The position numbers and the translations under genes were made by a program. The notes beneath the pieces were generated by a model. It searched no databases. It was not told the DNA's origin and saw only the letters and a program-made list of their open reading frames with translations. A stretch of 64,000 nucleotides of DNA from Escherichia phage vB_EcoM_G2540. Positions 1 through 45,582 of the stretch are shown here, in pieces (within the stretch, counting starts at the first letter, position 1; every line of letters begins with the position of its first letter). The stretch lies in the sequence record MK327936.1. The stretch is one strand, 5' to 3'.

Positions 1-2178
1 TTAGGCCGCAAGGGCCTTCATAGTTTTAGCGATTTGGGAAACTTCATCATCACTTAAAGAGTTGCGATAACCGATGAAGTCGGAAACAATACGGAATTTC
101 TTGGTAAACTCAGCAACCATTTTATCACTGTTTTTTGAAGCATTATTTGATAATATATCAAAAAGATTAGTTACTGTCCAGATGTCATGACCGATGGTAT
201 CTTTTCCACCATTAAAATATACGCCGCGCAATGAACTAACTATATTAGCGAGTCGTGTATATTCTTCAGAAACTTCATCTGTACTGAAGTACTTCATCAT
301 AAAATCTAGTTCAGGATACTTGATAATTTTATCAATATATCGTTGAGCTGAACTTGAATAACCTACATACTTATCATAATCTACATCATCAAAAGCATCT
401 ACATATAAATCACGCAAAGCTTCAAAAATACATTGGCACTGACCGAGTTCTTTTACCTTTTTCTGCAAAAGCGGACGAATAACATAAAACTCATTAATGC
501 CAATAAGATTAGCCATACGAATCAAAATATTCATAGATGGATGACAAAGAGATGTAGTACCATCCATAGAGAAAATATCAGAACGATGCATATACGCTAC
601 ATACCCAGTAATTTCATCTGCTTCTGATGTGAGCGTAAATAATTCCTCTTTTTCCCAGCGCCCGTCTTTAATTTCAAACTTAAATGCTGTAGCAGCTTTA
701 GGACGAGGAGCTTTACTTTTAACTACCTTTGGAATATAGCTTTTAACTAAAGCTTCAATTTCTGACAAATAATGAATGTTAACTTCATCACTTTCAAACA
801 TCGCCATAATATCAGGAAGCAAATCAATCTGCGATTCTACTTCTGGATTAATAAACAGAAGGCGTTCGTTGTGATGAATATTCAAAGTGTTATTAAATTC
901 ACTATCATCTAACGCATGTGCTAATCCACGGACAATATTAACACGATTTTTAATATTATCAATAACGATATTAATTTTTGTTGCATTAATACCAAACAGA
1001 CGATAACTTGATGCAACGGCTGAAGTTTCATGACTTTGCTTAATGCGCTTCAGTCGAGGGTCAAGATTTACTTCATACACAACTCCTGCATTGCATAACT
1101 TACTGTCAGGTTCAAACATGCTCTGCATCTTTTTATATGACAGATTTTTAGTCGTAAATTTGACTGAATTACTAATCATATAATCTCGAGCAGAATACCC
1201 CATCTTCATCAATTCACGATATGTATGACGGGGAGATGTGGATTCTTTAAATCGTTTTACATCTTCATTAAATGCTTTCTCACTGAGTTCTTTAACTCGT
1301 TCAATAATATTTTTACGAGTACGATCATCCAGTGAAAGAGCCTCGCGAGATGGAGCAATATCAAGTGAACCCATTGGAAACTTAATGTAATTCACTTCAT
1401 TGCGAATGCTTAGCCAGTTACGGTCTCTAATAACACCATCGATAGGATAAACAATACCGCCATAGATAGCATATAATCCACCACGATCAGGCCAGTATCT
1501 TTCTGGATTTACACCGTAATAGTCATTAAAATCCGGAAAATAATCAATTTCGCGGTCAAGACCATTAATGATAGCCAAATCTTTGAATGGTCGCATGATA
1601 TAAGAAACTTCATAAGCAAAGTTTCTAAAGTCTTTTTCTTCAACTGGAACTACGATTTCAATACCAGTTTTATCATCTGGACCCATTTCTTTTACGAATG
1701 TAGGTTTAATCTGTGGACCATCACCATCCATGTAAGCTACATAACCACGAATTTCACCTTTATGATACGAAGTAATACTAAATGTATCAGTATAACTAAA
1801 CGGAGATTTAGAACCTAAACCAAACCCGCCAATAAAGTCATTAGATTCAGCCTTAGATGAACTGAAGTATGAATTATATAACCCAGGAGAATTATCATCA
1901 CCCTGAATATCAAAATCACTCATACCCGGACCAAAATCTCGACAAACAAATCGCGGATCTAATCGTCCTGGAACTTGTATGATAAATTTTTCAGGATTTC
2001 CATTAAGTGCATGGGCATCAATCATATTAGTAATTAATTCACGGACTACTGCACGAATCTTGTTTGTATACAAATCAGATGACAGAATTTTAAATACTTT
2101 AGGAGATGCTGTGATGCTAAATGCTTTTGATTTAGAACCATTGCCAAGAATTGTTTCTTTTTCAGTGGTGATAATCAT
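1..2178 (-). CDS. rIIA: rIIA protein, 725 aa
   Basis: 725-aa ORF ending at window position 1; length and N-terminus ([14 protein letters not shown]...) match recalled T4 rIIA. Confidence 0.85.
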
Positions 2179-2188
2179 AATTTCCTCA

Positions 2189-2392
2189 TTAATTCATATT
2201 ACGCTTAATAACTTCAGCAACTTCTAGTAATTCATCTTTAGTTGCAGTGTCGGATTGAATTTTATCTCTAATATCTTTAAAGCGGTTTTTAAATTCTTCG
2301 GCTTCTCCCATATCGAAAAAGCGTTGAATGATTCTATATTCTCGATGAACTGCTTTATCAAAAAGTTCTAAATTTACTTTATATGATTTCAT
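2189..2392 (-). CDS. small conserved protein downstream of rIIA (rIIA.1 position)
   Basis: 67-aa ORF in the rIIA.1 position by synteny. Confidence 0.55.
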
Positions 2393-2417
2393 TTCAATAT
2401 CCTCATTTGCCCAATTA

Positions 2418-2447
2418 ATTATACCACATCCTTGTGGTAAAGTAAAC
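2418..2447 (-). promoter_or_regulatory. T4-type early promoter
   Basis: minus-strand -35 GTTTAC (plus gtaaac 2442-2447), 18-bp spacer, -10 TATAAT (plus attata 2418-2423) preceded by GTGG; upstream of rIIA.1/rIIA. Confidence 0.6.
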
Positions 2448-4267
2448 TACTGGCTCATCCATTCTTTACGAAGGTCAGCATTATCTCCCATGAGCATTTC
2501 AAAAAGCTCTTTCCAGTTCTCAGGAAGTTTAACAACATCATATACTGGATTTTGAATCATCTCACGATATTCAGATTTTTCCAAAGAGCCAAGTCCTTTA
2601 ATATAACGGATGCTATGTTTAGGTAGAGCATCTTTAGCACTCTCATATTCAGCGACTGTATAAAACCATTCTTGTTTTTTACCAATCTGTGCGATGATTA
2701 CAGGAGTTTTGACAAAGCGAATTCGTCCTTGCTCAAACAGTTCTGGCCAATTACTAAAAAATCCAAGCAGAGAAGGATAAATGCTTCCTAGACCATCATG
2801 GTCAGCATCAGTCATAATAGCAATATTATGATAATTCAAGTTTTCAGCTTTTTCACCGAGAACTAATCCAGTGATTGCGCAAATATCAAACAGTTCTTTG
2901 TTTTTAAGCATGTCAGCATATGACATACCCCAACTGTTGAGAACTTTACCACGTAATGGATAACCACCGTGAAGTTCTTTATCACGAACATCAATAAGAT
3001 ATCCGATAGCCGAATCACCCTCAGTCAAGAAAAGAGTAGTATCAGCATCTTTACCACAAAGATTCGCTTTAATATGTTTATGAACCTTAGCTTTAGAAGC
3101 CTTTTTAGCTGCTTTAGTTTCTGCTGCTTTTTCTGCCGCTAATTTACGAGCCAAAGCAGCTTCAATAATCGGCATTAGAATTGCTTCATTATTTAGAATA
3201 GCACGTGAAATCTTTTTAGCATCAAGTTGAATATGACTACGGATTTCACCAAATGGAGAAGTCAAACGCTCTTTAGTTTGAGAATCAAATCGCATGTTTT
3301 TCATATCACGGACAAACATAACGATAGTCAAACATTCTTTAACGCGTGCTTTAGTCACATCAATTTTGAACTTACGTTTGATTTGTGGAATAAGGTCTTC
3401 ACAAATATCATCCATAACACAGTCAATGTGATGGCCACCATTCTTAGTGTGAATGTTATTCACATAAGTTAATTGACGAAAACCATCCGGTGAACGACCA
3501 ACCGCAATAGAGCAATTTTCTTGTTCTTGAACGATAGCATGCTCATCATATTGGCGTGCATATTTCTTAAAATTGCCCTGAACCTTTTTACCATTAAAGG
3601 TAAATTGAATATCAGGATAAACTACTGCAAGTGTCTGGAGACGATCTAGTGTAATGTCAAGATAAACTTGGGACAGCTCATTAGTTTCAAATGACATAAA
3701 ATCAGGAATGAAAGTAACGCGAGTTCCTTTCCATTTTCCTGGAATAGTTTCCCATGATTTATTTTCCATGCCATTTGAACAACGAACTACAATATTATTT
3801 TGACCATCACCAGTTTCACCGACAAACATCACAGAAAAAATGTTTGTCAAACTAGAACCAACACCATTCATACCACCGGTGACGCGTTCTTTATCATCAC
3901 CGAAGTTACCACCTGCTTTTGGAATAGTCCAGGCAGCAACAGGACCAGGAATTTCTTCACCAGTAGGTGTTTTGACCATCGCTTGTGGAATACCGCGACC
4001 GTTATCTTCAACTGTTACTTGATTGTTTTTAATAGTAATATTAATTTTATTTGCGAATTTAAACTTAGTACGAATACCTTCATCTACTGAGTTATCGATA
4101 ATTTCATCAATAAGCTTAACAAGACCAGGTACATACTGAACACTTTCCCATTTACCAAACAGAAAGCGCTCATGCATTTCATTAGCAGAAGAGCCAATAT
4201 ACATGCCGCTACGCTTTTTGATATGTTCAATATCGCTCAGAATTTTAATTTCATTCTTAATCATCAC
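2447..4267 (-). CDS. 39: DNA topoisomerase II large subunit (GyrB-like ATPase), unsplit 606-aa form
   Basis: N-terminus MMIKNEIKILSDIEHIKKRSGMYIGS..., GHKL ATPase motifs (EDNGRGIP); single ORF covers what T4 splits into genes 39 and 60. Confidence 0.85.
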   Translation of the reverse strand: MMIKNEIKILSDIEHIKKRSGMYIGSSANEMHERFLFGKWESVQYVPGLVKLIDEIIDNSVDEGIRTKFKFANKINITIKNNQVTVEDNGRGIPQAMVKTPTGEEIPGPVAAWTIPKAGGNFGDDKERVTGGMNGVGSSLTNIFSVMFVGETGDGQNNIVVRCSNGMENKSWETIPGKWKGTRVTFIPDFMSFETNELSQVYLDITLDRLQTLAVVYPDIQFTFNGKKVQGNFKKYARQYDEHAIVQEQENCSIAVGRSPDGFRQLTYVNNIHTKNGGHHIDCVMDDICEDLIPQIKRKFKIDVTKARVKECLTIVMFVRDMKNMRFDSQTKERLTSPFGEIRSHIQLDAKKISRAILNNEAILMPIIEAALARKLAAEKAAETKAAKKASKAKVHKHIKANLCGKDADTTLFLTEGDSAIGYLIDVRDKELHGGYPLRGKVLNSWGMSYADMLKNKELFDICAITGLVLGEKAENLNYHNIAIMTDADHDGLGSIYPSLLGFFSNWPELFEQGRIRFVKTPVIIAQIGKKQEWFYTVAEYESAKDALPKHSIRYIKGLGSLEKSEYREMIQNPVYDVVKLPENWKELFEMLMGDNADLRKEWMSQ

Positions 4268-4316
4268 TTATCCTCGTTTGGTTTCGGGAATATTATACTC
4301 CGGTAATCATAAAGCT

Positions 4317-4334
4317 AAAGGCCCGAAGGCCTTT
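4317..4334 (-). terminator. intrinsic terminator hairpin
   Basis: aaaggcc-cgaa-ggccttt stem-loop (UUCG tetraloop on the transcript) immediately 3' of the 4334..4603 ORF. Confidence 0.5.
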
Positions 4335-4603
4335 TATTTAAAACGAATAGTCGAATCCTTGAAGAATAGTCCAGAACATACTGTTCCTTCTACTTTCTGC
4401 CCAGTAGGTCCAATAGCACGAAATCCAGTATGCTGGAAATCATTTTCAGAGCAACCGAACCAATTATATCCAGTGATTTCAATATTAGTAAAACCACTTG
4501 AAGACAAAACTTTGGTTGCATTATCAGCATCAGTACATCCTATTAAAGACACTGCTAATACTAATGCTGCGATAGAACGATTAATATATTTCATAATTTT
4601 CAC
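4334..4603 (-). CDS. putative lipoprotein, 89 aa
   Basis: signal peptide with lipobox-like LIGC motif (MKIMKYINRSIAALVLAVSLIGC). Confidence 0.5.
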   Translation of the reverse strand: MKIMKYINRSIAALVLAVSLIGCTDADNATKVLSSSGFTNIEITGYNWFGCSENDFQHTGFRAIGPTGQKVEGTVCSGLFFKDSTIRFK

Positions 4604-4971
4604 TTAAATTTAATGGCTTGAAGAAGACTAATAATTCTCAAGCGACTTCCTTCATCTTTAACTGTAAAAGAAAGAGGGTCACCAGATTTCATAGTGATAG
4701 TGCATTCAAAAGCAAAACCTTCGGGAACTTCTTCGAAGAAGTCAAATTCTTCATCATAAATTAGAACATTACTCTGAAAACTGTGAAGAATTTTTCCGTC
4801 ATTTCCAGATGCTGTACTAATCATTGTAACATTATTACCTTTCATATCTTCAACGATAAATTCGCTTGTAGATATTACAGCATTAATAGAACCATTCCTA
4901 TAAATAGCAGAAAATAGATATTTCTTTTCTTCACCTTCGCGAATGCGATATTTCTTACCGATTTTAAACAT
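4600..4971 (-). CDS. hypothetical protein, 123 aa
   Basis: ORF tightly packed with neighbours (start overlaps stop of upstream ORF). Confidence 0.45.
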   Translation of the reverse strand: MFKIGKKYRIREGEEKKYLFSAIYRNGSINAVISTSEFIVEDMKGNNVTMISTASGNDGKILHSFQSNVLIYDEEFDFFEEVPEGFAFECTITMKSGDPLSFTVKDEGSRLRIISLLQAIKFK

Positions 4972-4973
4972 AA

Positions 4974-5150
4974 TTACCCTTTAAGTAAGTCGTAAAATCC
5001 GCCATTCACATGCTTAGGGGCAGAGACTAACCGAATAGCAATCCGATGACAATCAGGACATACATCAGTATCTCTTTCAGAAATTTTCTTGATTTTTTCG
5101 TATTCTTTTGCGCAGTCTTTTGATTGACATTTATAATCATAAAGCGGCAT
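4974..5150 (-). CDS. small zinc-ribbon protein, 58 aa (below the ORF-track size cut-off)
   Basis: hand translation MPLYDYKCQSKDCAKEYEKIKKISERDTDVCPDCHRIAIRLVSAPKHVNGGFYDLLKG; two CxxC pairs; fills the gap between flanking ORFs. Confidence 0.45.
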   Translation of the reverse strand: MPLYDYKCQSKDCAKEYEKIKKISERDTDVCPDCHRIAIRLVSAPKHVNGGFYDLLKG

Positions 5151-5152
5151 AA

Positions 5153-5566
5153 TTATTCCTTAAAGTGAGCTTTCAACATCTGATACAAGGACCATGCCTG
5201 TTCATCATTTTCAATAGTAACTTTCATTACAGGGAATTTAGATTGATCAGTTATCGGTGCAGATTCTTCCTGCTCTTCAGCTGCCTGGTATGGATTTTCA
5301 ACTTCATTAAAGAATTCAGCTTCATTCGATGAAAGCCAAATAAAATCTTCATCCAAAATATCTTTACCAGAAGATAGTACTAAATTTCCAGCAAATGACA
5401 TAATTTTAATAGGACGCCCAAGAGCATCCACATCTAAAATTTTAAAAGGATGCATACCTAAACGGCGTGCATAGATTCCGTTATCAGTATGGTCTTTAAT
5501 AAAATTTTCTTGAGCTTGTTTATTTTTAAACTGATACCATTTATTAACTTCAAATTTAATAGCCAT
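5153..5566 (-). CDS. hypothetical protein, 137 aa (goF position by synteny)
   Basis: ORF in the position and approximate size of T4 goF; no motif recognised. Confidence 0.4.
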
Positions 5567-5781
5567 TAATAAATTTCCTTCCAGTAAGTTGTACCATCTT
5601 CAGTGATTTCACGAAATACACCGTAAATTGGTTGTTTATCCCCAACCTTTTCATACACATAAACCGAAGTCAAGTGAGTAAACTTAGCAGTGTGTTCCTT
5701 TTGAACTACTACCAAATCTGGATCGAATAACACATCTTCAAATTCGTCATTAGTGCAGTTCTGAACAATTTTACGTTTCAT
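5566..5781 (-). CDS. hypothetical protein, 71 aa (cef position by synteny)
   Basis: 71-aa ORF, size and position consistent with T4 cef; sequence identity not verified. Confidence 0.35.
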
Positions 5782-15267: not shown

Positions 15268-15297
15268 ATAAATTCTCGCGGCTTTTAAGACGAGCTG

Positions 15298-15876: not shown

Positions 15877-17216
<1,340 letters not shown>

Positions 17217-22883: not shown

Positions 22884-22999
22884 TATATTTTTCCATAGGC
22901 AGCATTATATTTTACTCATGTTTATAATAAAGGGTATTGTTATACCCAGAGTTTAACTACATCATATTTAATAATGAGATAATTATATCACCTTATCAT

Positions 23000-23113
23000 T
23001 TAGCATTTACTTTTTGATTTCTTACTTTCATAAAGGTCATACAGATACAATCCAGCAAGACTAACTGCGGCAAATATTCCTAAGCCAGTAATGAATAATA
23101 AAGGTCCTAACAT
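23000..23113 (-). CDS. candidate small hydrophobic peptide, 37 aa
   Basis: hand translation MLGPLLFITGLGIFAAVSLAGLYLYDLYESKKSKSKC in the uvsX-bgt intergenic region. Confidence 0.3.
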   Translation of the reverse strand: MLGPLLFITGLGIFAAVSLAGLYLYDLYESKKSKSKC

Positions 23114-23125
23114 ATTAACCTCAAA

Positions 23126-24203
23126 TTAAGCGGTGATATCGAGAACGCGAAGAAGCTCTTCTTGCCATTCTGATTTTAAACTTTGATACTTAAATAGGGT
23201 TTGATGTTGTATTGTAATCAATTCCCGCCTCAAGCACTCATTGGTTTTTAACTCATTTACTAAAGTTTCAAAATCATTTTTATTCTTAACGTAGAATCTA
23301 GGGTCGTCAATAATAAGATGCTCGCTATCAAACTCTTCATCGATAAGCATCACAGCATCTGATGCCATGGCCTCCCAGACTCTAATTGTGATAAAATTAT
23401 CATTGTAATCTTTATCACCAATGACTATAGTTGCTATCGCTTGGCTATTCGTGTCAATAACCAAATTTGATGCTATTTTTTTGACTGAATGATGGAGCTA
23501 CATTCCACGGAAATTTAGGATTTTTAAACTGTTTCTCTTTAATAGTTCCAAACATTTTAATATTTAAATTGGTATCAAAAAGAAATTCAACTATTTTAGA
23601 CTCTCGTTGCCCACCTCTAAACGCGCCGCAGTACACAACGTCATATTTTTTAATAGTTTGATTCGCAGGTTTAAGTTTCTGTGAATGAATAAAATATCTA
23701 TCTACAGGAAAGTAATCATACTCAAATTCTTTACCGTATCTTTCGGTTGTTTTCTTATGAGCCTTTTTAGCAATTTCTAGATTTCTGCCCTGAGATATTA
23801 CTTTAAAGTCAGATGACACAAATAAGTCTTCATCTTTGTATTCACTTGAAAATTTCTTTCTGCGAACTACCGGAAGAACTTGCATAAATCCAAGACGGCC
23901 ATCAGTAAAAATATAATAAATTTTACTTCTATATTCAGCCATCAATTTATATGAATTTAAAACGATTGGATTTTTCTTTCCACCGAAGAAATTGATAGCG
24001 CCATTAATTACTATTAGTCTATCGTATGAATTTATATCAGTTACTACATCAAATGATATAGTGTATTCAGTATTTCGCATTGAAATTATATCAACGGAAT
24101 GCCCTAATTCAGTTAAAGACCTGCCTATTAAAATAGTTTCGGCTGATGATACTATTTTAAAATCACTCACAGTATTACTTAAATTTAGAATAGCTATTTT
24201 CAT
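23126..24203 (-). pseudogene. bgt: beta-glucosyltransferase-like gene split by a frameshift in an A7 run
   Basis: 249-aa N-terminal ORF plus 112-aa C-terminal ORF together resemble recalled T4 beta-gt (~60% identity); frames switch at the T7 run 23476-23482; removing one base restores FSQKIASNLVIDTNSQAIA, colinear with T4. Confidence 0.65.
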
Positions 24204-25057
24204 GATATTTCCGTAACTTCAACTTTGTGAATAGCATTAAACTTATGAAATGCTTCTGATTTTTCTTTACGCGAAACGCACATGCGAAGAACCTTTAATG
24301 GCTCGTCTTCTTCACCCAACGATTTTCGTTTTTCAATATTAGAAGTTTTCCAACGAGCTTGCTCTGGAAACTCTCTATTGATTTGCTCAAGCGCTCTATT
24401 ATGTTTAGAATTACTACGAATTGAACTACACCCGCCAGGAGCTTGTGCTTTTCCAGATACAACTAGATATTTGAACAAGGCCAAATGCGGATAACCTTGA
24501 TTAATTAAATTGAGAAATGCATACATATCTTCGCATAAATCAATTTTTCCATACCCAATTTGTTCTGTCGTAAGTTTTCCGAGGTCATACCATGTATTCG
24601 TGAATCCATATGAATTTTCACGATAATTACCCCAAGATGAAGTAATTTTAAAAATTGGTAGACGAGCATGACCGTGATAATACCCGCAATCCATGGCATC
24701 TTCAACATATTGAATCAATTCATAGAACTGTTCACGAGTCAATTGATTGACTTTATCTACGCAACGCCGATCATCTCTTTTTCGCATTGAACTCATACGA
24801 ATAGTAGTATCATCGTCAATCATCCAGATTCGTTGACCTGCATACATATCAGTAATTGCTTTACGAGTACCAGCAATTCCATTTACATCATCAGGAATAG
24901 TTATAATTTTAGCTCTAGACCCATAGGCATCATAATAAGCTTTTTCTTCGTGTTCACGTACTACAATATGTGGTTCATAATCAGTCGGAAACATATCAAG
25001 GGCAGAAACTGCCCCTACACGTTGATAGCTTGGAATTACGAATTGAATCATTTCCAC
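24200..25057 (-). CDS. putative GT-A-fold glycosyltransferase, 285 aa
   Basis: N-terminal QFVIPSYQR resembles the GT2 VIPTYN motif; DxD-like IWMIDDDTT ~80 aa in; sits between bgt and gene 42. Confidence 0.4.
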   Translation of the reverse strand: MEMIQFVIPSYQRVGAVSALDMFPTDYEPHIVVREHEEKAYYDAYGSRAKIITIPDDVNGIAGTRKAITDMYAGQRIWMIDDDTTIRMSSMRKRDDRRCVDKVNQLTREQFYELIQYVEDAMDCGYYHGHARLPIFKITSSWGNYRENSYGFTNTWYDLGKLTTEQIGYGKIDLCEDMYAFLNLINQGYPHLALFKYLVVSGKAQAPGGCSSIRSNSKHNRALEQINREFPEQARWKTSNIEKRKSLGEEDEPLKVLRMCVSRKEKSEAFHKFNAIHKVEVTEIS

Positions 25058-33114: not shown

Positions 33115-33831
33115 ATGAATTATAAACTAATTTATGAAAAGTTAATCTCTAATGCTAAATCTCGAAAACTTGATTGTTATACTGAATCTCATCACATTAT
33201 ACCACGCTGTTTAAATGGCAGCGATGATGCTTCAAACTTAGTAGATTTAACACCAGAAGAGCACTATGTAGCTCATCAACTTTTAGTAAAAATTTATCCT
33301 TCTGAACCAAAATTAGTCTATGCTGCTAACATGATGACAGTTTCTACGAAATACGCTAAACGCAACAATAAAACTTTCGGTTGGATTCGTCGTAAACTCT
33401 GGGAAATAGAAAAGAATAAAGAATTCTCCCAGGAGACACGAAAGAAAATGTCTGATGCAGTAGCTAATAAAGCAAGACTAACTTGTCCTCATTGCGGTAA
33501 GTCTGGATTAAGCGGGAATATGAATCGTTGGCATTTTGATAACTGCCCAAATCACCCTAATCCTAAAGTTAGACCACCAATGTCTAAAGAACACAGAAAT
33601 AATATCTCAAACGGGCTTAAAGCAATCGTTCTTGAAGAAACATCCTGCGAATTCTGCGGAATGATAGGCAAGAAATGCGTTATCGCAGCGCATAGAAATT
33701 TCTGCAAGAAAAATCCAAATGGACGCAAGAAAACTGAAAAGACTGGTACTTGCGTCCATTGTGGTAAAGTTACCACTTTCGGAAATTTATCAAGATGGCA
33801 TAATGATAACTGTAAATATAAACTTAGCTAA
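33115..33831 (+). mobile_element. free-standing HNH homing endonuclease, 238 aa, with three C-terminal zinc-ribbon repeats
   Basis: HNH motif ESHHIIPRCLNGSDDASNLVDLTPEEHYVAHQ; three Cys-rich repeats (CPHCGK...RWHFDNC, CEFCG...AAHRNFC, CVHCGK...RWHNDNC); opposite strand to neighbours. Confidence 0.8.
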
Positions 33832-35959: not shown

Positions 35960-36975
35960 TGTGTTGCCTCTACATATAACTGATTTGCATATTGAATAAG
36001 TGCTTCACGGTCAGAATCAGTGATGTCTGGAATTGCATTAATGTATTCTTCCATCAACGTCTGAAGAGATTGAACTTCAACTTCTTCACTTTCATCTGAC
36101 TCGACAGAGTTATCAATCTTTGACACAACTCGTAATGAATGCACAACTTTTTCTAGTTCAGATTCGAACTTCGTTAGATTTTTGTCTACTTCAGTTACTA
36201 TAACACGTACTGATAGATTTGTAAAATCTTTATAGTCAATTTTTCCTTTAAATGGATAATGAATTCTGCGATGCCAAGTAGTGTTGTTTGGAATAAATTC
36301 CATTCGTTCTGTTTCTGTATCAAACATCCAGAACCCGCGAGGGTCATTCTCGTCACCTGCAGTTAGTGTCCATGGTGTCCCAATATATCTGACATTTGCA
36401 GCCTCAGAGATAGTATGGAAGTGACCAGACCACACTTCTTTATAAGTCTTAAGGAAATCAGGTTCAAGACCGTGAGATTTCATTCCTTTATAAAAATAAA
36501 ATCCATTCAGTTCCCAGTGACCAACACAAAAAGAAGCAGATGAAGTTTTGATGTGTTCAAGAATTTCACCAGTATTTTCTTCGCACATCCAAGGAATCAA
36601 ATCAATCAAACATCCGTCAAAATCTACTGTAGTAGGCTTATCATATACTTTAACATTAGGATATTTAGCCAAAAGCTCAGTAGAGGCATTTGGATGCATT
36701 ACATTTTTGTAGTGGAGATCGTGATTTCCTACAATAGTATGTAATGTGATTCCAGCGTCATCAAGCATTTGAACTATTTCACGGGCAAACTCCATAGTTT
36801 TATGCGTGATTGCTTTTCGCACATCAAAAATATCACCATATTGAATCCATACAGTAATTCCATTTTTCTTAGAATATTCTATCGCTTGCTTAATTCCATC
36901 AATTTGAATACCGCGAATCCACTCATCATCAGCTTTAACGCCTAAATGCCAATCACCCAAGTTTAGTATTTTCAT
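35956..36975 (-). CDS. 47: recombination nuclease subunit gp47 (Mre11/SbcD-like), 339 aa
   Basis: 339 aa as in T4; phosphoesterase motifs (LGDWHLG, GNHD). Confidence 0.85.
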   Translation of the reverse strand: MKILNLGDWHLGVKADDEWIRGIQIDGIKQAIEYSKKNGITVWIQYGDIFDVRKAITHKTMEFAREIVQMLDDAGITLHTIVGNHDLHYKNVMHPNASTELLAKYPNVKVYDKPTTVDFDGCLIDLIPWMCEENTGEILEHIKTSSASFCVGHWELNGFYFYKGMKSHGLEPDFLKTYKEVWSGHFHTISEAANVRYIGTPWTLTAGDENDPRGFWMFDTETERMEFIPNNTTWHRRIHYPFKGKIDYKDFTNLSVRVIVTEVDKNLTKFESELEKVVHSLRVVSKIDNSVESDESEEVEVQSLQTLMEEYINAIPDITDSDREALIQYANQLYVEATQ

Positions 36976-37576
36976 GGTGTCTTTTCCATCCTAATTTAGC
37001 TGCTTTTGAAACCAGTTCTTTAATTTTTCCTTTTGTCCATTCAGGACCAGGAGGTTCATGACATAACATTTGCTTAACTCCGTTATTATACCATTTTTTA
37101 CCTTTATTATGTGATGAAGCTTTAAATTTATTTGACCTTCCTTTTACATAACCTTCTGGAATATAAGGCAAAAAGGCAGATTTTCCTGTTAATGGATCAT
37201 GTGAATGTATATTTCCTTTACAATTATGAGAACCATATAATGGATGATTTTGTCCTTTATTATCTCTTCCAAATGAACCTTTTGGAGCAGCATATGACAT
37301 ATTAAAGAATAATGGATTTTTAACTGCATCATGCAATCGTTGATAATATAACTCGCATTTAATAGCTTCTTCACGCGTATCAAATTCAGCTAAAATGCAT
37401 GAATCAAATAAGTGAGGATTATCTGAAAGCTCTTTATTATAAATTTTCTTATACTTTTTAGATAAAACTGAACCATGATATCCAGCTAAATGCCTATCTA
37501 AAGACGTAGATCCAATATAAAAAGGAGGAAGTTTATCTCCACTATATATTGTTAAATAAGTTATATATTTTTTCAT
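36953..37576 (-). mobile_element. GIY-YIG (Seg-like) homing endonuclease, 207 aa
   Basis: GIY-YIG module YITYLTIY...FYIGSTS with downstream Arg and Glu; basic C-terminal region; 3' end overlaps the gene 47 start by 23 nt. Confidence 0.7.
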
Positions 37577-37754: not shown

Positions 37755-38955
37755 ATTTTGTAATAATGTCAAACTGTTCTTTAAAGCAGAAGCTTGAATC
37801 TTGATGCTGATACAAAAATTCATATGCTTTTTCACGCTCACGGTCATAAAGAGCTCGGTCAGATGACAGTTCTTTAATACGTTCAAATGTTGATTCCATA
37901 TCATTTTCATCAAACCAAATGATACCGCTATCATGCGAGGTCAAAGGAGTATTATCAACACGGAATTTTAAATTTTCGCCAGTAGATTTCCAAAATACCG
38001 GAATTGTTCCACATGCACCAAGCTCGAGATGAGTATATTCTAAAGAGCGCTGTAGATATTTTTTATCCAACTTACTCAACTGATAACCAAATCCGGATTT
38101 ACTCATACGTTCAAGCATTTCGCTATTTACATAACGATCGAGAATTTGCGTTGGTAAATTAGGAGCAATTTTAATTTGGTCTACTTGATGAAGACGATAA
38201 TACTCGTATGGAATTCCTTTTTCTTTAATAGGAATGAACGCTGGAGAACGTTCCAGACCTTCCATAATAGTACTTAGTCCTGCAGGTTTAAGATGTTTTT
38301 CGTGAAAATCAAACATCTGATAAAAACCTTTCCATGTAGTCGTACGACCAATCCAACGGTTGACATTCATGTTAATTTCAGAAACATCTTTCCAGTAGGT
38401 TGACCGAACCTTCGCAATATCCATAGGAGGCTGAAAGTTATATACGGTCGGCGCTTCTTCAATATCATCAAACAGAGAAACAGTTTCTGGATACCATTCT
38501 TTCATCAGAACTTTATTAAAATCACCATTATCAGAATGGCTAAAAATAACATCAGCTCGACGAACAGTTTCTTCTAATCCCAAATTTCGACGCAAAGAAA
38601 GAGAAGAATGGTCATGTTGATAAACTACAACACGAACCGAAGGTTTAATGTTATCAATAATTTTTTTATAGTTATTAATAGTGTCTTCTTCAACTGAAGT
38701 AGCAGGAACTGAATTGATAATTAGAATATCACAATCATTTACCAGCTTAAGTGTTTTATCGTATTCTTTTGCCAATAAAACCGGAATTGAAAATGATTTA
38801 TAATCATGCGCACAGTTACGAGTAAATGATTTATCTTTGGCATAAACCAAAGTTACTTCATGACCATTTTTAATAAACCAATCACGTTGCTCGAGTGAGA
38901 ATTTTGTTACACCACAACCTTCAAGACCTCGAGCCATAAAAATACATACTTTCAT
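37753..38955 (-). CDS. agt: DNA alpha-glucosyltransferase, 400 aa
   Basis: 400 aa; N-terminus M.VCIFMARGLEGCGVTKFSLEQRDWFIKNGHEVTLVYAKDKSF closely matches recalled T4 alpha-gt. Confidence 0.85.
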   Translation of the reverse strand: MKVCIFMARGLEGCGVTKFSLEQRDWFIKNGHEVTLVYAKDKSFTRNCAHDYKSFSIPVLLAKEYDKTLKLVNDCDILIINSVPATSVEEDTINNYKKIIDNIKPSVRVVVYQHDHSSLSLRRNLGLEETVRRADVIFSHSDNGDFNKVLMKEWYPETVSLFDDIEEAPTVYNFQPPMDIAKVRSTYWKDVSEINMNVNRWIGRTTTWKGFYQMFDFHEKHLKPAGLSTIMEGLERSPAFIPIKEKGIPYEYYRLHQVDQIKIAPNLPTQILDRYVNSEMLERMSKSGFGYQLSKLDKKYLQRSLEYTHLELGACGTIPVFWKSTGENLKFRVDNTPLTSHDSGIIWFDENDMESTFERIKELSSDRALYDREREKAYEFLYQHQDSSFCFKEQFDIITK

Positions 38956-39004
38956 TTAATATCCTCTTTGTTTTGGTTTATTTTACCAAAAATTTATAAA
39001 GCAA

Positions 39005-43297: not shown

Positions 43298-43768
43298 TTA
43301 ATCATGTTTCCACACCCCATCGGTATTTGACCAAAGTCGCTGATTATCTGATCCTCGCCACAGCTTTTTAGTCGGAAGATTTTTCTCATACTTCCCATCA
43401 ATAATAACATCAACATATTTAAGCATTTCTAGTTGTTTAATATCTTCAAACTTATATCCTGTCCACAACCAAATGCTTTTATTGGGATAAAGATTTTTTA
43501 CTGTTTGAACCACAGAGTGAATCACGTCTCTGTTATCAGGATAAAGAGGGTCACCTCCGGTTATAGTTAATCCTTCTATATAATCATTATTCAAACATTC
43601 AATTAATTGTTCTAGTGTTTCACCAGTGAATGGAATACCATTTCTAGCATTCCATGTTGATTTATTATAACACCCTTCGCATTTATGCAAACAACCTGTA
43701 ACGAAAAGAACGACCCTGCATCCAGGGCCATTCACAAAATCGCAAGGATAAAATCTATCATAATTCAT
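43298..43768 (-). CDS. nrdG: anaerobic ribonucleotide reductase activating protein NrdG, 156 aa
   Basis: 156 aa as in T4; radical-SAM-type Cys cluster (CxxxCxxC in GCLHKCEGCYN). Confidence 0.8.
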   Translation of the reverse strand: MNYDRFYPCDFVNGPGCRVVLFVTGCLHKCEGCYNKSTWNARNGIPFTGETLEQLIECLNNDYIEGLTITGGDPLYPDNRDVIHSVVQTVKNLYPNKSIWLWTGYKFEDIKQLEMLKYVDVIIDGKYEKNLPTKKLWRGSDNQRLWSNTDGVWKHD

Positions 43769-45582
43769 TGGTGTTTAACCCTATGCATGATTTCTTTATT
43801 TTTACCGAGATTAAATCCGCGTTCGTTCGGATTTCCCAAATAACCACATGTTCTTCTTATTGTGTTCATCTTTTTAGGATCAGTTTCTCCACAAATAGAA
43901 CAAACAAATCCGTTTTCAGTAGGAGTCATTTCATGGGTACTTCCACATGTAAAACATTTATCTACTGGCATATTAACACCAAAATAATCTAAATGTTGTG
44001 CAGCATAATCCCATACGGCCTCAAGGCCTTTCAAGTTATTTTTCATATCAGGAAGTTCAACATAAGAAATGTGACCACCTGTCGCAATGAAATGATATGG
44101 CGCTTCACGAGAAATCTTTTCAAACGGAGTAATATTTTCTTCTACTGAAACGTGGAAACTGTTAGTGTACCAGCCTTTATCGGTAACATCTTTTACACTT
44201 CCATATTTTTCTGTATCAAGTTTACAGAAGCGATAACAAAGGTTTTCAGCAGGAGTAGAATACAAACTAAAAGCAAACTCAGTTCTTTCAGTCCACTGTT
44301 TAAGACGAGCATTCATTTTAGTTAAAATTTCTCGTCCAATATCACGACCGACAAGAATATTCAATTCGTGAATACCAATGTATCCTAGAGACACTGAACT
44401 TCTACCATTTTTAAATAACTCAATTATATCGTCATCAGGTTTAAGACGAACCCCGAATGCACCTTCTTGGTAAAGAATAGGAGCAACAGTCGCTTTAACT
44501 CCTTTTAAGGAACTAATTCTACACATCAATGCTTCAAAACATAAATCCATTCGTTCATTGAACAATTCAACAAATTTCTGTTCATTGAATTGTGTTCCAA
44601 TATAAGAATCTAACGCGATACGAGGAAGATTCAGTGTTACAACACCGAGATTATTACGTCCATCAAGAATTTCATTACCAGTCGAATCTTTCCATACGCT
44701 CAAGAAACTACGGCAACCCATTGGAGAAACAGGAATAGATGAGCCGGTGATAGCTTTATTGTTCTTAGCTGAAATAATATCAGGATACATTCTTTTGCTT
44801 GCGCACTCTAGAGCAAGCTGTTTAATATCATAGTTCGGATCGTCTTTATAAAGATTAACACCTTCTTCAACAAACATAACAAGCTTAGGGAAAATAGGAG
44901 TTATCCCATCACGACCAAGACCTTTAATACGATTTTTCAGAATTGCTTTCTGAATCATTCGTTCAGTCCAGTCAGTTCCTGTACCAAATGTAATTGTTAC
45001 AAAAGGTGTTTGTCCGTTTGAACTAAAGAGAGTATTTACTTCATATTCATAAGCTTGGAATGCATCGTATACATCTTTTTCTGTTTTAGATTGAGCATAA
45101 TTCAACGCATCAGCGATTTGCCATTTTTCTGCATCCTCAATATGTTTTGCATAGGTGCGTTTAACATAAGGAGAAAGTACTTTATCTACATTAGCAAAAG
45201 TCGTTCCGCCGTATTGATGGGAAGCAACCTGTGCAGTAATTTGTGCCATAATTGCAGTAGCAACACCGATTGATTTAGGAGTTTCAATCTGTGCATTACC
45301 AAGCTTAAATCCATTCTCAAGCATTCCTTTTAAATCTACTAAACAACAATTAGTAAATGGAAGAGCAGGGGAATAATCAATATCGTGGAAATGAATAATT
45401 CCGCTTTCATGCGCTTTCATAATAAAAGACGGGACCATATTTTTGGCAATGTGTTTAGACACAATACCAGCCATAAGGTCCCGTTGAGTTGGAAAAACAC
45501 GAGAATCTTTATTAGCATTCTCGTTTAAAAGGTCTTTATTAGTTTTATGAATCAATCCTTCAATTTCTTTTTCAATTGTCAT
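43765..45582 (-). CDS. nrdD: anaerobic ribonucleoside-triphosphate reductase NrdD, 605 aa, uninterrupted
   Basis: 605 aa; C-terminal glycyl-radical region (...RTCGYLG) and Zn-ribbon CxxC...CxxC; no intron in the ORF. Confidence 0.85.
   Translation of the reverse strand: MTIEKEIEGLIHKTNKDLLNENANKDSRVFPTQRDLMAGIVSKHIAKNMVPSFIMKAHESGIIHFHDIDYSPALPFTNCCLVDLKGMLENGFKLGNAQIETPKSIGVATAIMAQITAQVASHQYGGTTFANVDKVLSPYVKRTYAKHIEDAEKWQIADALNYAQSKTEKDVYDAFQAYEYEVNTLFSSNGQTPFVTITFGTGTDWTERMIQKAILKNRIKGLGRDGITPIFPKLVMFVEEGVNLYKDDPNYDIKQLALECASKRMYPDIISAKNNKAITGSSIPVSPMGCRSFLSVWKDSTGNEILDGRNNLGVVTLNLPRIALDSYIGTQFNEQKFVELFNERMDLCFEALMCRISSLKGVKATVAPILYQEGAFGVRLKPDDDIIELFKNGRSSVSLGYIGIHELNILVGRDIGREILTKMNARLKQWTERTEFAFSLYSTPAENLCYRFCKLDTEKYGSVKDVTDKGWYTNSFHVSVEENITPFEKISREAPYHFIATGGHISYVELPDMKNNLKGLEAVWDYAAQHLDYFGVNMPVDKCFTCGSTHEMTPTENGFVCSICGETDPKKMNTIRRTCGYLGNPNERGFNLGKNKEIMHRVKHQ

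Follow-up and report, generated by a model that had tools for sequence, protein, structure and literature searches.

Phages T4 and T6 encode an ATP-dependent, DNA-relaxing topoisomerase II that acts together with gp52 (PMC11461880). In T4, the large subunit is divided between two genes, 39 and 60, and the split divides a metal-binding site (Manning & Atkins, bioRxiv 2022). The inserted material forms a pendant on the Toprim domain and has little effect on activity (PMC11461880). A MobA homing-endonuclease cassette splits the T4 gene after codon 473, adding tails to both halves and bringing with it a 50-nt translational bypass. The insertion point, including a 64-nt deletion, has already been mapped with phage RB14 as the numbering reference (Manning & Atkins, bioRxiv 2022). 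Both that study and the 2024 structure paper (PMC11461880) credit the homing experiments to Bonocora et al. 2011. Manning & Atkins 2022 cite that work as having found that MobA nicks the naive gene in the region equivalent to homR, that a T2 recipient is converted to the split form by MobA in mixed infection, and that the bypass insert shields its carriers from being cut again. The unsplit form of gene 39 is itself already documented, in T2/T4 comparisons, by Manning & Atkins 2022, and in the cryo-EM structures of T6 gp39.

Here, we describe the corresponding gene of Escherichia phage vB_EcoM_G2540 (MK327936.1), hereafter G2540, within a window that comprises the whole 64,000-nt stretch of DNA analyzed. 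With a probability of about 97%, we read positions 2447 to 4264 of the minus strand as a Tequatrovirus gene 39 that encodes a complete 605-aa large subunit of a type IIA topoisomerase and is in the naive, uninvaded state. Such a naive gene 39 would either never have received the MobA cassette or have kept no trace of it. The features of the locus are collected in Table 1.

Results and Discussion

Extent of the gene 39 reading frame

An ORF search of the 64-kb window returned a minus-strand frame of 606 codons that runs from a GTG at 4267 to position 2447. With a stop probability of about 0.079 per codon for this strand at the base composition of the window, a frame this long would stay free of stops with a probability of about 2e-22, and it is therefore a real gene. 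The ORF finder takes the first ATG, GTG, or TTG past a stop as the start, and the GTG lies one codon upstream of an ATG. The Shine-Dalgarno sequence is spaced 7 nt from the ATG at 4264 and 4 nt from the GTG, T4 gp39 begins with MIKNEIK, and the interval from the ATG onward is the one annotated for gene 39 in T2, T6, RB14, and vB_EcoM_G2540-3. For these reasons, translation almost certainly starts at the ATG, giving a product of 605 aa. A preliminary description of this DNA, made from the sequence, had assigned the whole large subunit to one 606-aa ORF; the single gene holds, and the length is corrected by one residue.

Table 1 Features of the gene 39 locus and positions of T4 elements relative to the window
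Feature	Position	Strand	Description and basis
Gene 39 ("60plus39"), DNA topoisomerase II large (ATPase + Toprim) subunit	2447..4264	-	605 aa plus stop codon; ORF, Pfam, PHROG 543, T6 alignment, and T2/T6/RB14 coordinates
64-nt segment replaced in T4 by the 1117-nt mobA/bypass cassette	2783..2846	-	Third base of codon 473 and all of codons 474-494; includes the target region of MobA in the naive gene
Gly491 (GGT) and Leu492 (CTA), contiguous	2789..2794	-	Counterparts of Gly46 (take-off codon GGA) and Leu47 in T4 gp60, between which T4 has the 50-nt coding gap
Toprim acidic metal-binding cluster DADHDG, aa 486-491	2792..2809	-	Motif search
Toprim catalytic Glu motif EGDSA, aa 415-419	3008..3022	-	Motif search
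GTG codon, start in the preliminary description	4265..4267	-	Probably 5' UTR; ATG favored by Shine-Dalgarno spacing and annotated homologues
Putative Shine-Dalgarno sequence GAGGA	4271..4275	-	Direct reading of the sequence
TATAAT after the GGCCTTCGGGCC hairpin	4297-4292	-	Sequence; putative promoter element
Hairpin GGCCTTCGGGCC upstream of gene 39	4320..4331	-	Sequence; putative terminator in the MK327944 annotation
T4-side gap, segF, 659 nt	15268-15297		
T4-side gap, segA, 988 nt	22884-23281		
T4-side gap, mobB, 861 nt	38947-38970		
T4-side gap, mobC, 601 nt	~43748-43768		
T4-side gap, I-TevII intron, 1035 nt	45045-45046		

One gene covers both T4 gp39 and T4 gp60

In blastp comparisons, residues 1-473 of the G2540 product aligned with T4 gp39 1-473 at 98% identity, and residues 472-605 aligned with T4 gp60 27-160 at 95% (about 95% when restricted to 477-605 against gp60 32-160). 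The ORF is thus collinear with gp39 1-473 followed by gp60 32-160, and the position of the Gly46/Leu47 bypass shows neither an insertion nor a deletion. A codon-by-codon comparison placed the end of the gp39 homology at Ala473, after which T4 enters a 43-aa tail encoded by the cassette. T4 gp60 in turn begins with 31 unique residues, and its homology resumes at Asn32, which corresponds to Asn477 of G2540. The three residues in between, E474-N475-L476, have no counterpart in T4, and the lengths of the proteins balance accordingly (516 + 160 - 605 = 71 = 43 + 31 - 3). Codons 477-494, equivalent to gp60 32-49, share only 68.5% nucleotide identity with T4, mainly through synonymous changes, compared with 97.6% over the remaining gp60 arm.

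At the nucleotide level, blastn aligned window positions 1-2782 with T4 12-2793 and window positions 2847-4596 with T4 3911-5661. The breakpoints therefore fall at 2782/2847 in the window and 2793/3911 in T4, leaving 64 nt in the former against 1117 nt in the latter. This segment agrees with the 64-nt deletion mapped by Manning & Atkins 2022. An insertion of the T4 type would place about 1.1 kb after codons 466-473, whereas the ORF of G2540 is continuous there. The signature of a bypass is missing as well: matched GGA codons are absent, Gly491 does not precede a stop, and no bases have been inserted. In T4 gp60, by contrast, a TAG comes after the Gly46 codon, and Leu47 lies beyond the 50-nt gap.

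T4 and G2540 thus share the same enzyme and the flanks of its gene, and they differ in what lies between the breakpoints. T4 has the 43-aa gp39 tail, the 31-aa unique head of gp60, a recoded homologous stretch of 18 codons, the 50-nt untranslated gap, and a decayed HNH endonuclease gene (the mobA/60.1 cassette), and G2540 has none of these. The preliminary description had stated that the gene split into 39 and 60 in T4 is a single gene here and that both the insertion and any bypass-like coding gap are absent. The alignments to T4 gp39 plus gp60, T2, T6, and RB14 that it called for bear this out and map the insertion point. They also dispose of the objection that it had itself raised, that the ORF might lack the gp60-equivalent C-terminal region.

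A separate difference between the two phages lies just ahead of the QTK loop. Codons 326-328 of gene 39 (window positions 3281-3289) read MR-LIR-QTK in the T4 record NC_000866 and MR-FDS-QTK in G2540 and T6, owing to two indels (-1/+1) that compensate each other, CGATTGATTCGTCAA versus CGATTTGATTCTCAA. The LIR reading could stem from an early sequencing mistake in the T4 record, or it could be genuine and peculiar to T4.

The gene bears no trace of a lost cassette

We searched for remnants of the cassette by three routes. A blastn-short search with the T4 50-nt gap and its flanks gave only chance-level matches of 10 to 14 nt across the 64-kb window. In tblastn searches, the intact MobA of HY01, the T4 CTE (the gp39 tail), and the T4 NTE (the gp60 head) had no significant match in or beside gene 39. 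Over the whole window, there was no MobA orthologue, CTE or NTE tail, or bypass sequence, the sole MobA relative being a 38%-identical paralogue at 33115-33462. Third, none of the 17 T4-type homR substitutions was present in gene 39 of G2540. Instead, codons 470-499, which span the entire segment replaced in T4, are identical to those of T2 at the nucleotide level.

These results bear on the history of the locus. An ancestor of G2540 might have carried the MobA/bypass cassette and later had its gene restored, through recombination with a naive phage or through a deletion that fused the two halves again; the term "pre-insertion" would then be historically wrong. In favor of such a history, Manning & Atkins (bioRxiv 2022) described progressive loss of the element and a single clade in which the ORFs had become fused secondarily. 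T-even genomes are also highly mosaic: over the first 25 kb of the window, the best match of any record was 98.7%, and over the first 7 kb all differences from MK327944 fall within rIIA. However, the re-fused genes in that study retain the CTE and NTE tails, and G2540 has neither. Since the gene lacks homR substitutions and tail remnants and has exactly the 605-aa length found in T2, T6, and RB14, a re-fusion that left scars is ruled out. A naive allele swapped in by recombination would have the same sequence and function and would leave no trace. With the 64-nt region identical to that of T2, we regard a secondary restoration of either kind as highly improbable; if true, it would exemplify complete, scarless loss of a bypass cassette. 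Scarless loss after a past invasion by MobA, or the related idea that flanking synonymous differences have changed the susceptibility to MobA relative to T2, is likewise given little weight and seems to us very unlikely.

The unsplit gene is the majority state

The naive, uninvaded reading of the G2540 gene is matched by its closest described counterparts. T6 gp39 (YP_010067157; PDB 8ylu) is also 605 aa long and collinear, occupies the same coordinates in a genome that likewise starts at rIIA, and has the same architecture, with 97.4% nucleotide identity and three conservative substitutions (I76V, Q526H, and I527V). T2 gp39, again 605 aa, shows 96.0% nucleotide identity and four amino acid differences, and near the site it differs synonymously at codons 466, 467, 469, and 500. 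The RB14 gene "60plus39" (YP_002854339) agrees in length and position and shows 97.6% nucleotide identity and three amino acid differences, with two synonymous differences within the 64-nt segment, at codons 485 and 492. Against RB14, T6, and T2, there are 44 to 73 nucleotide differences versus only 3 to 4 amino acid differences, and the gene is under purifying selection.

To count the two states, we used a 251-nt query across the junction and scored it as uninterrupted when it matched as one piece with at least 80% coverage. By this measure, 455 of 496 phage records (~92%) were uninterrupted. The T4 cassette matched 43 records (~8% of the relatives), with 41 of the matches being nearly full length, and its carriers include T4 strains, RB55, RB59, vB_EcoM_112, G50, HY01, HY03, and several Salmonella phages. 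This count replaces an earlier one of 498 of 520 records, in which the two pieces of T4 had been joined as one place and split and unsplit genes could not be separated.

The unsplit gene 39 is therefore the majority state, and the cassette, which is not specific to T4, is a weak taxonomic marker. The preliminary description had offered G2540 as a clean reference for the pre-insertion state. The unsplit state is as it said, although such a reference already exists in T2, T6, and RB14, and "pre-insertion" is a claim about history.

Domains and identity of the gene 39 product

Three Pfam models matched the 605-aa product over their cut-offs: HATPase_c at residues 48-150 (E 2e-9), DNA_gyraseB at 251-385 (E 1.5e-13), and TOPRIM_C at 520-605. 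The Toprim model PF01751 itself had no match at E<=0.001, and this domain is recognized through TOPRIM_C and its motifs. PHROG 543, "DNA topoisomerase II large subunit," covered residues 1-605 with an E value of 7.5e-295. A motif search found the N-box, G1, and G2 motifs of a GHKL ATPase (EIIDNSVDE at 54-62, DNGRGIP at 87-93, and GGMNGVG at 130-136), the QTK loop of the transducer domain at 329-331, in addition to the DNA_gyraseB match, and the catalytic Glu and DxD acidic cluster of Toprim (EGDSA, with PLRGK at 436-440, and DADHDG) in one polypeptide. In T4, the DADHDG cluster lies on gp60, apart from the EGDSA motif on gp39.

The nearest solved structure is T6 gp39 (PDB 8ylu_C and five further entries), which aligns over 1-605 on 1-605. 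It is followed by the fused T4 gp39-gp60, then by eukaryotic Topo II (E ~1e-59) and bacterial GyrB (E ~1e-36). The order rIIA, rIIA.1, 39, 39.1 is the same in T2, T6, and RB14, with gene 39 between rIIA.1 and 39.1. On sequence grounds, its collinearity over ~605 aa and this position make the product a T-even Topo II large subunit of the uninterrupted form.

That the gene instead encodes a cellular-type DNA gyrase B, which would work with a GyrA partner and introduce negative supercoils, is hardly credible: several near-identical GenBank records are annotated "DNA gyrase subunit B," and NCBIfam gyrB and parE models do match at E ~1e-50 to 1e-69, but their scores of 233, 218, 210, 207, and 170 bits compare with curated cut-offs of 740, 882, 796, 900, and 723, eukaryotic Topo II is nearer than GyrB among the non-phage solved structures, and the T4 and T6 enzymes were assayed as DNA-relaxing Topo II with gp52 (PMC11461880). 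With scores so far under the cut-offs, we rejected membership in the cellular GyrB/ParE families; the protein is homologous to them without being a member. The proper name is accordingly "DNA topoisomerase II large subunit" rather than "gyrase B," and the wording "GyrB-like" of the preliminary description is fair.

As a topoisomerase II large subunit, the gene 39 product combines the GHKL ATPase, the transducer with its QTK loop, and the Toprim domain. Judging from its T6 homologue, it would pair with gp52 as a heterotetramer, and the enzyme would be expected to use ATP to move one DNA duplex through a temporary break made in a second duplex. Because codons 470-499 are identical to those of T2, the G2540 gene is a predicted target of MobA; in a mixed infection, we would expect this allele to be cut and converted to the split form, making the phage a potential recipient for MobA homing. 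Beyond correct annotation, the finding has little importance.

Genome context and other mobile elements

The nearest records to G2540 are unclassified Tequatrovirus isolates, and vB_EcoM_G2540-3 (MK327944) and Ptacy1496 match it at 100% identity across the gene 39 region. Against the first 50 kb of T4, 43.6 kb of the window could be aligned, at a mean identity of 94.1%. Besides mobA, the T4 homing elements segF, segA, mobB, mobC, and the I-TevII intron of nrdD are missing. This identity and the absence of five more homing-endonuclease elements place the phage outside T4 proper, as had been proposed from the unsplit gene, and they are firmer grounds for doing so than that gene by itself.

Over the first 7 kb, G2540 and MK327944 differ at 17 positions, all within rIIA (1-2178), with 11 of them clustered at 1714-1918. 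Lying beside an identical gene 39 region, these differences form a local mosaic typical of T-even recombination.

The set of mobile endonucleases is different from that of T4, not simply smaller. The MobA paralogue mentioned above is part of a 238-aa Mob-family HNH homing endonuclease (33115-33831, plus strand; phrog_655, E 7.5e-69) located between 45.2 and 46, on the strand opposite to all its neighbors. Its similarity is to the N-terminus of HY01 MobA, and it does not occur in T4, but 59 phage records contain it, RB32 and RB33 among them. A free-standing endonuclease of 207 aa lies between gene 47 and a-gt (36953-37576, minus strand), where T4 has none. It matched Pfam GIY-YIG slightly under the cut-off and phrog_10820 with E 1e-94, and of the 499 records with a match, about 65 have it at full length.

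Two glucosyltransferase genes occupy 23126-24203 and 24200-25057 on the minus strand. One is a beta-glucosyltransferase homologue with ~65% identity to T4 b-gt. It is broken into an ORF of 249 aa and one of 112 aa, which overlap and correspond to positions 1-243 and 249-357 of phrog_7922, and judging from this arrangement it may be a frameshifted pseudogene. Adjoining it is a T2/T6-type beta-glucosyl-HMC-alpha-glucosyltransferase (phrog_842, Pfam TAGT), which T4 does not have.

A 540-nt segment that T4 lacks contains a 186-aa ORF (16656-17216, minus strand; phrog_8706) whose start/stop overlaps with the dam methyltransferase gene at 15877-16656. Its sub-threshold Pfam matches to the restriction endonucleases DpnII (GATC; E 0.0045) and BanI (E 0.0093) are a hint only.

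Upstream of gene 39, there are two further minus-strand ORFs. The nearer one, at 4334-4603, encodes 89 aa with a lipoprotein-like N-terminus (…LVLAVSLIGCTD) and belongs to phrog_902. The other, at 4600-4971, encodes 123 aa, belongs to phrog_622, resembles RB32ORF005c, and lies in a 372-nt segment that T4 lacks.
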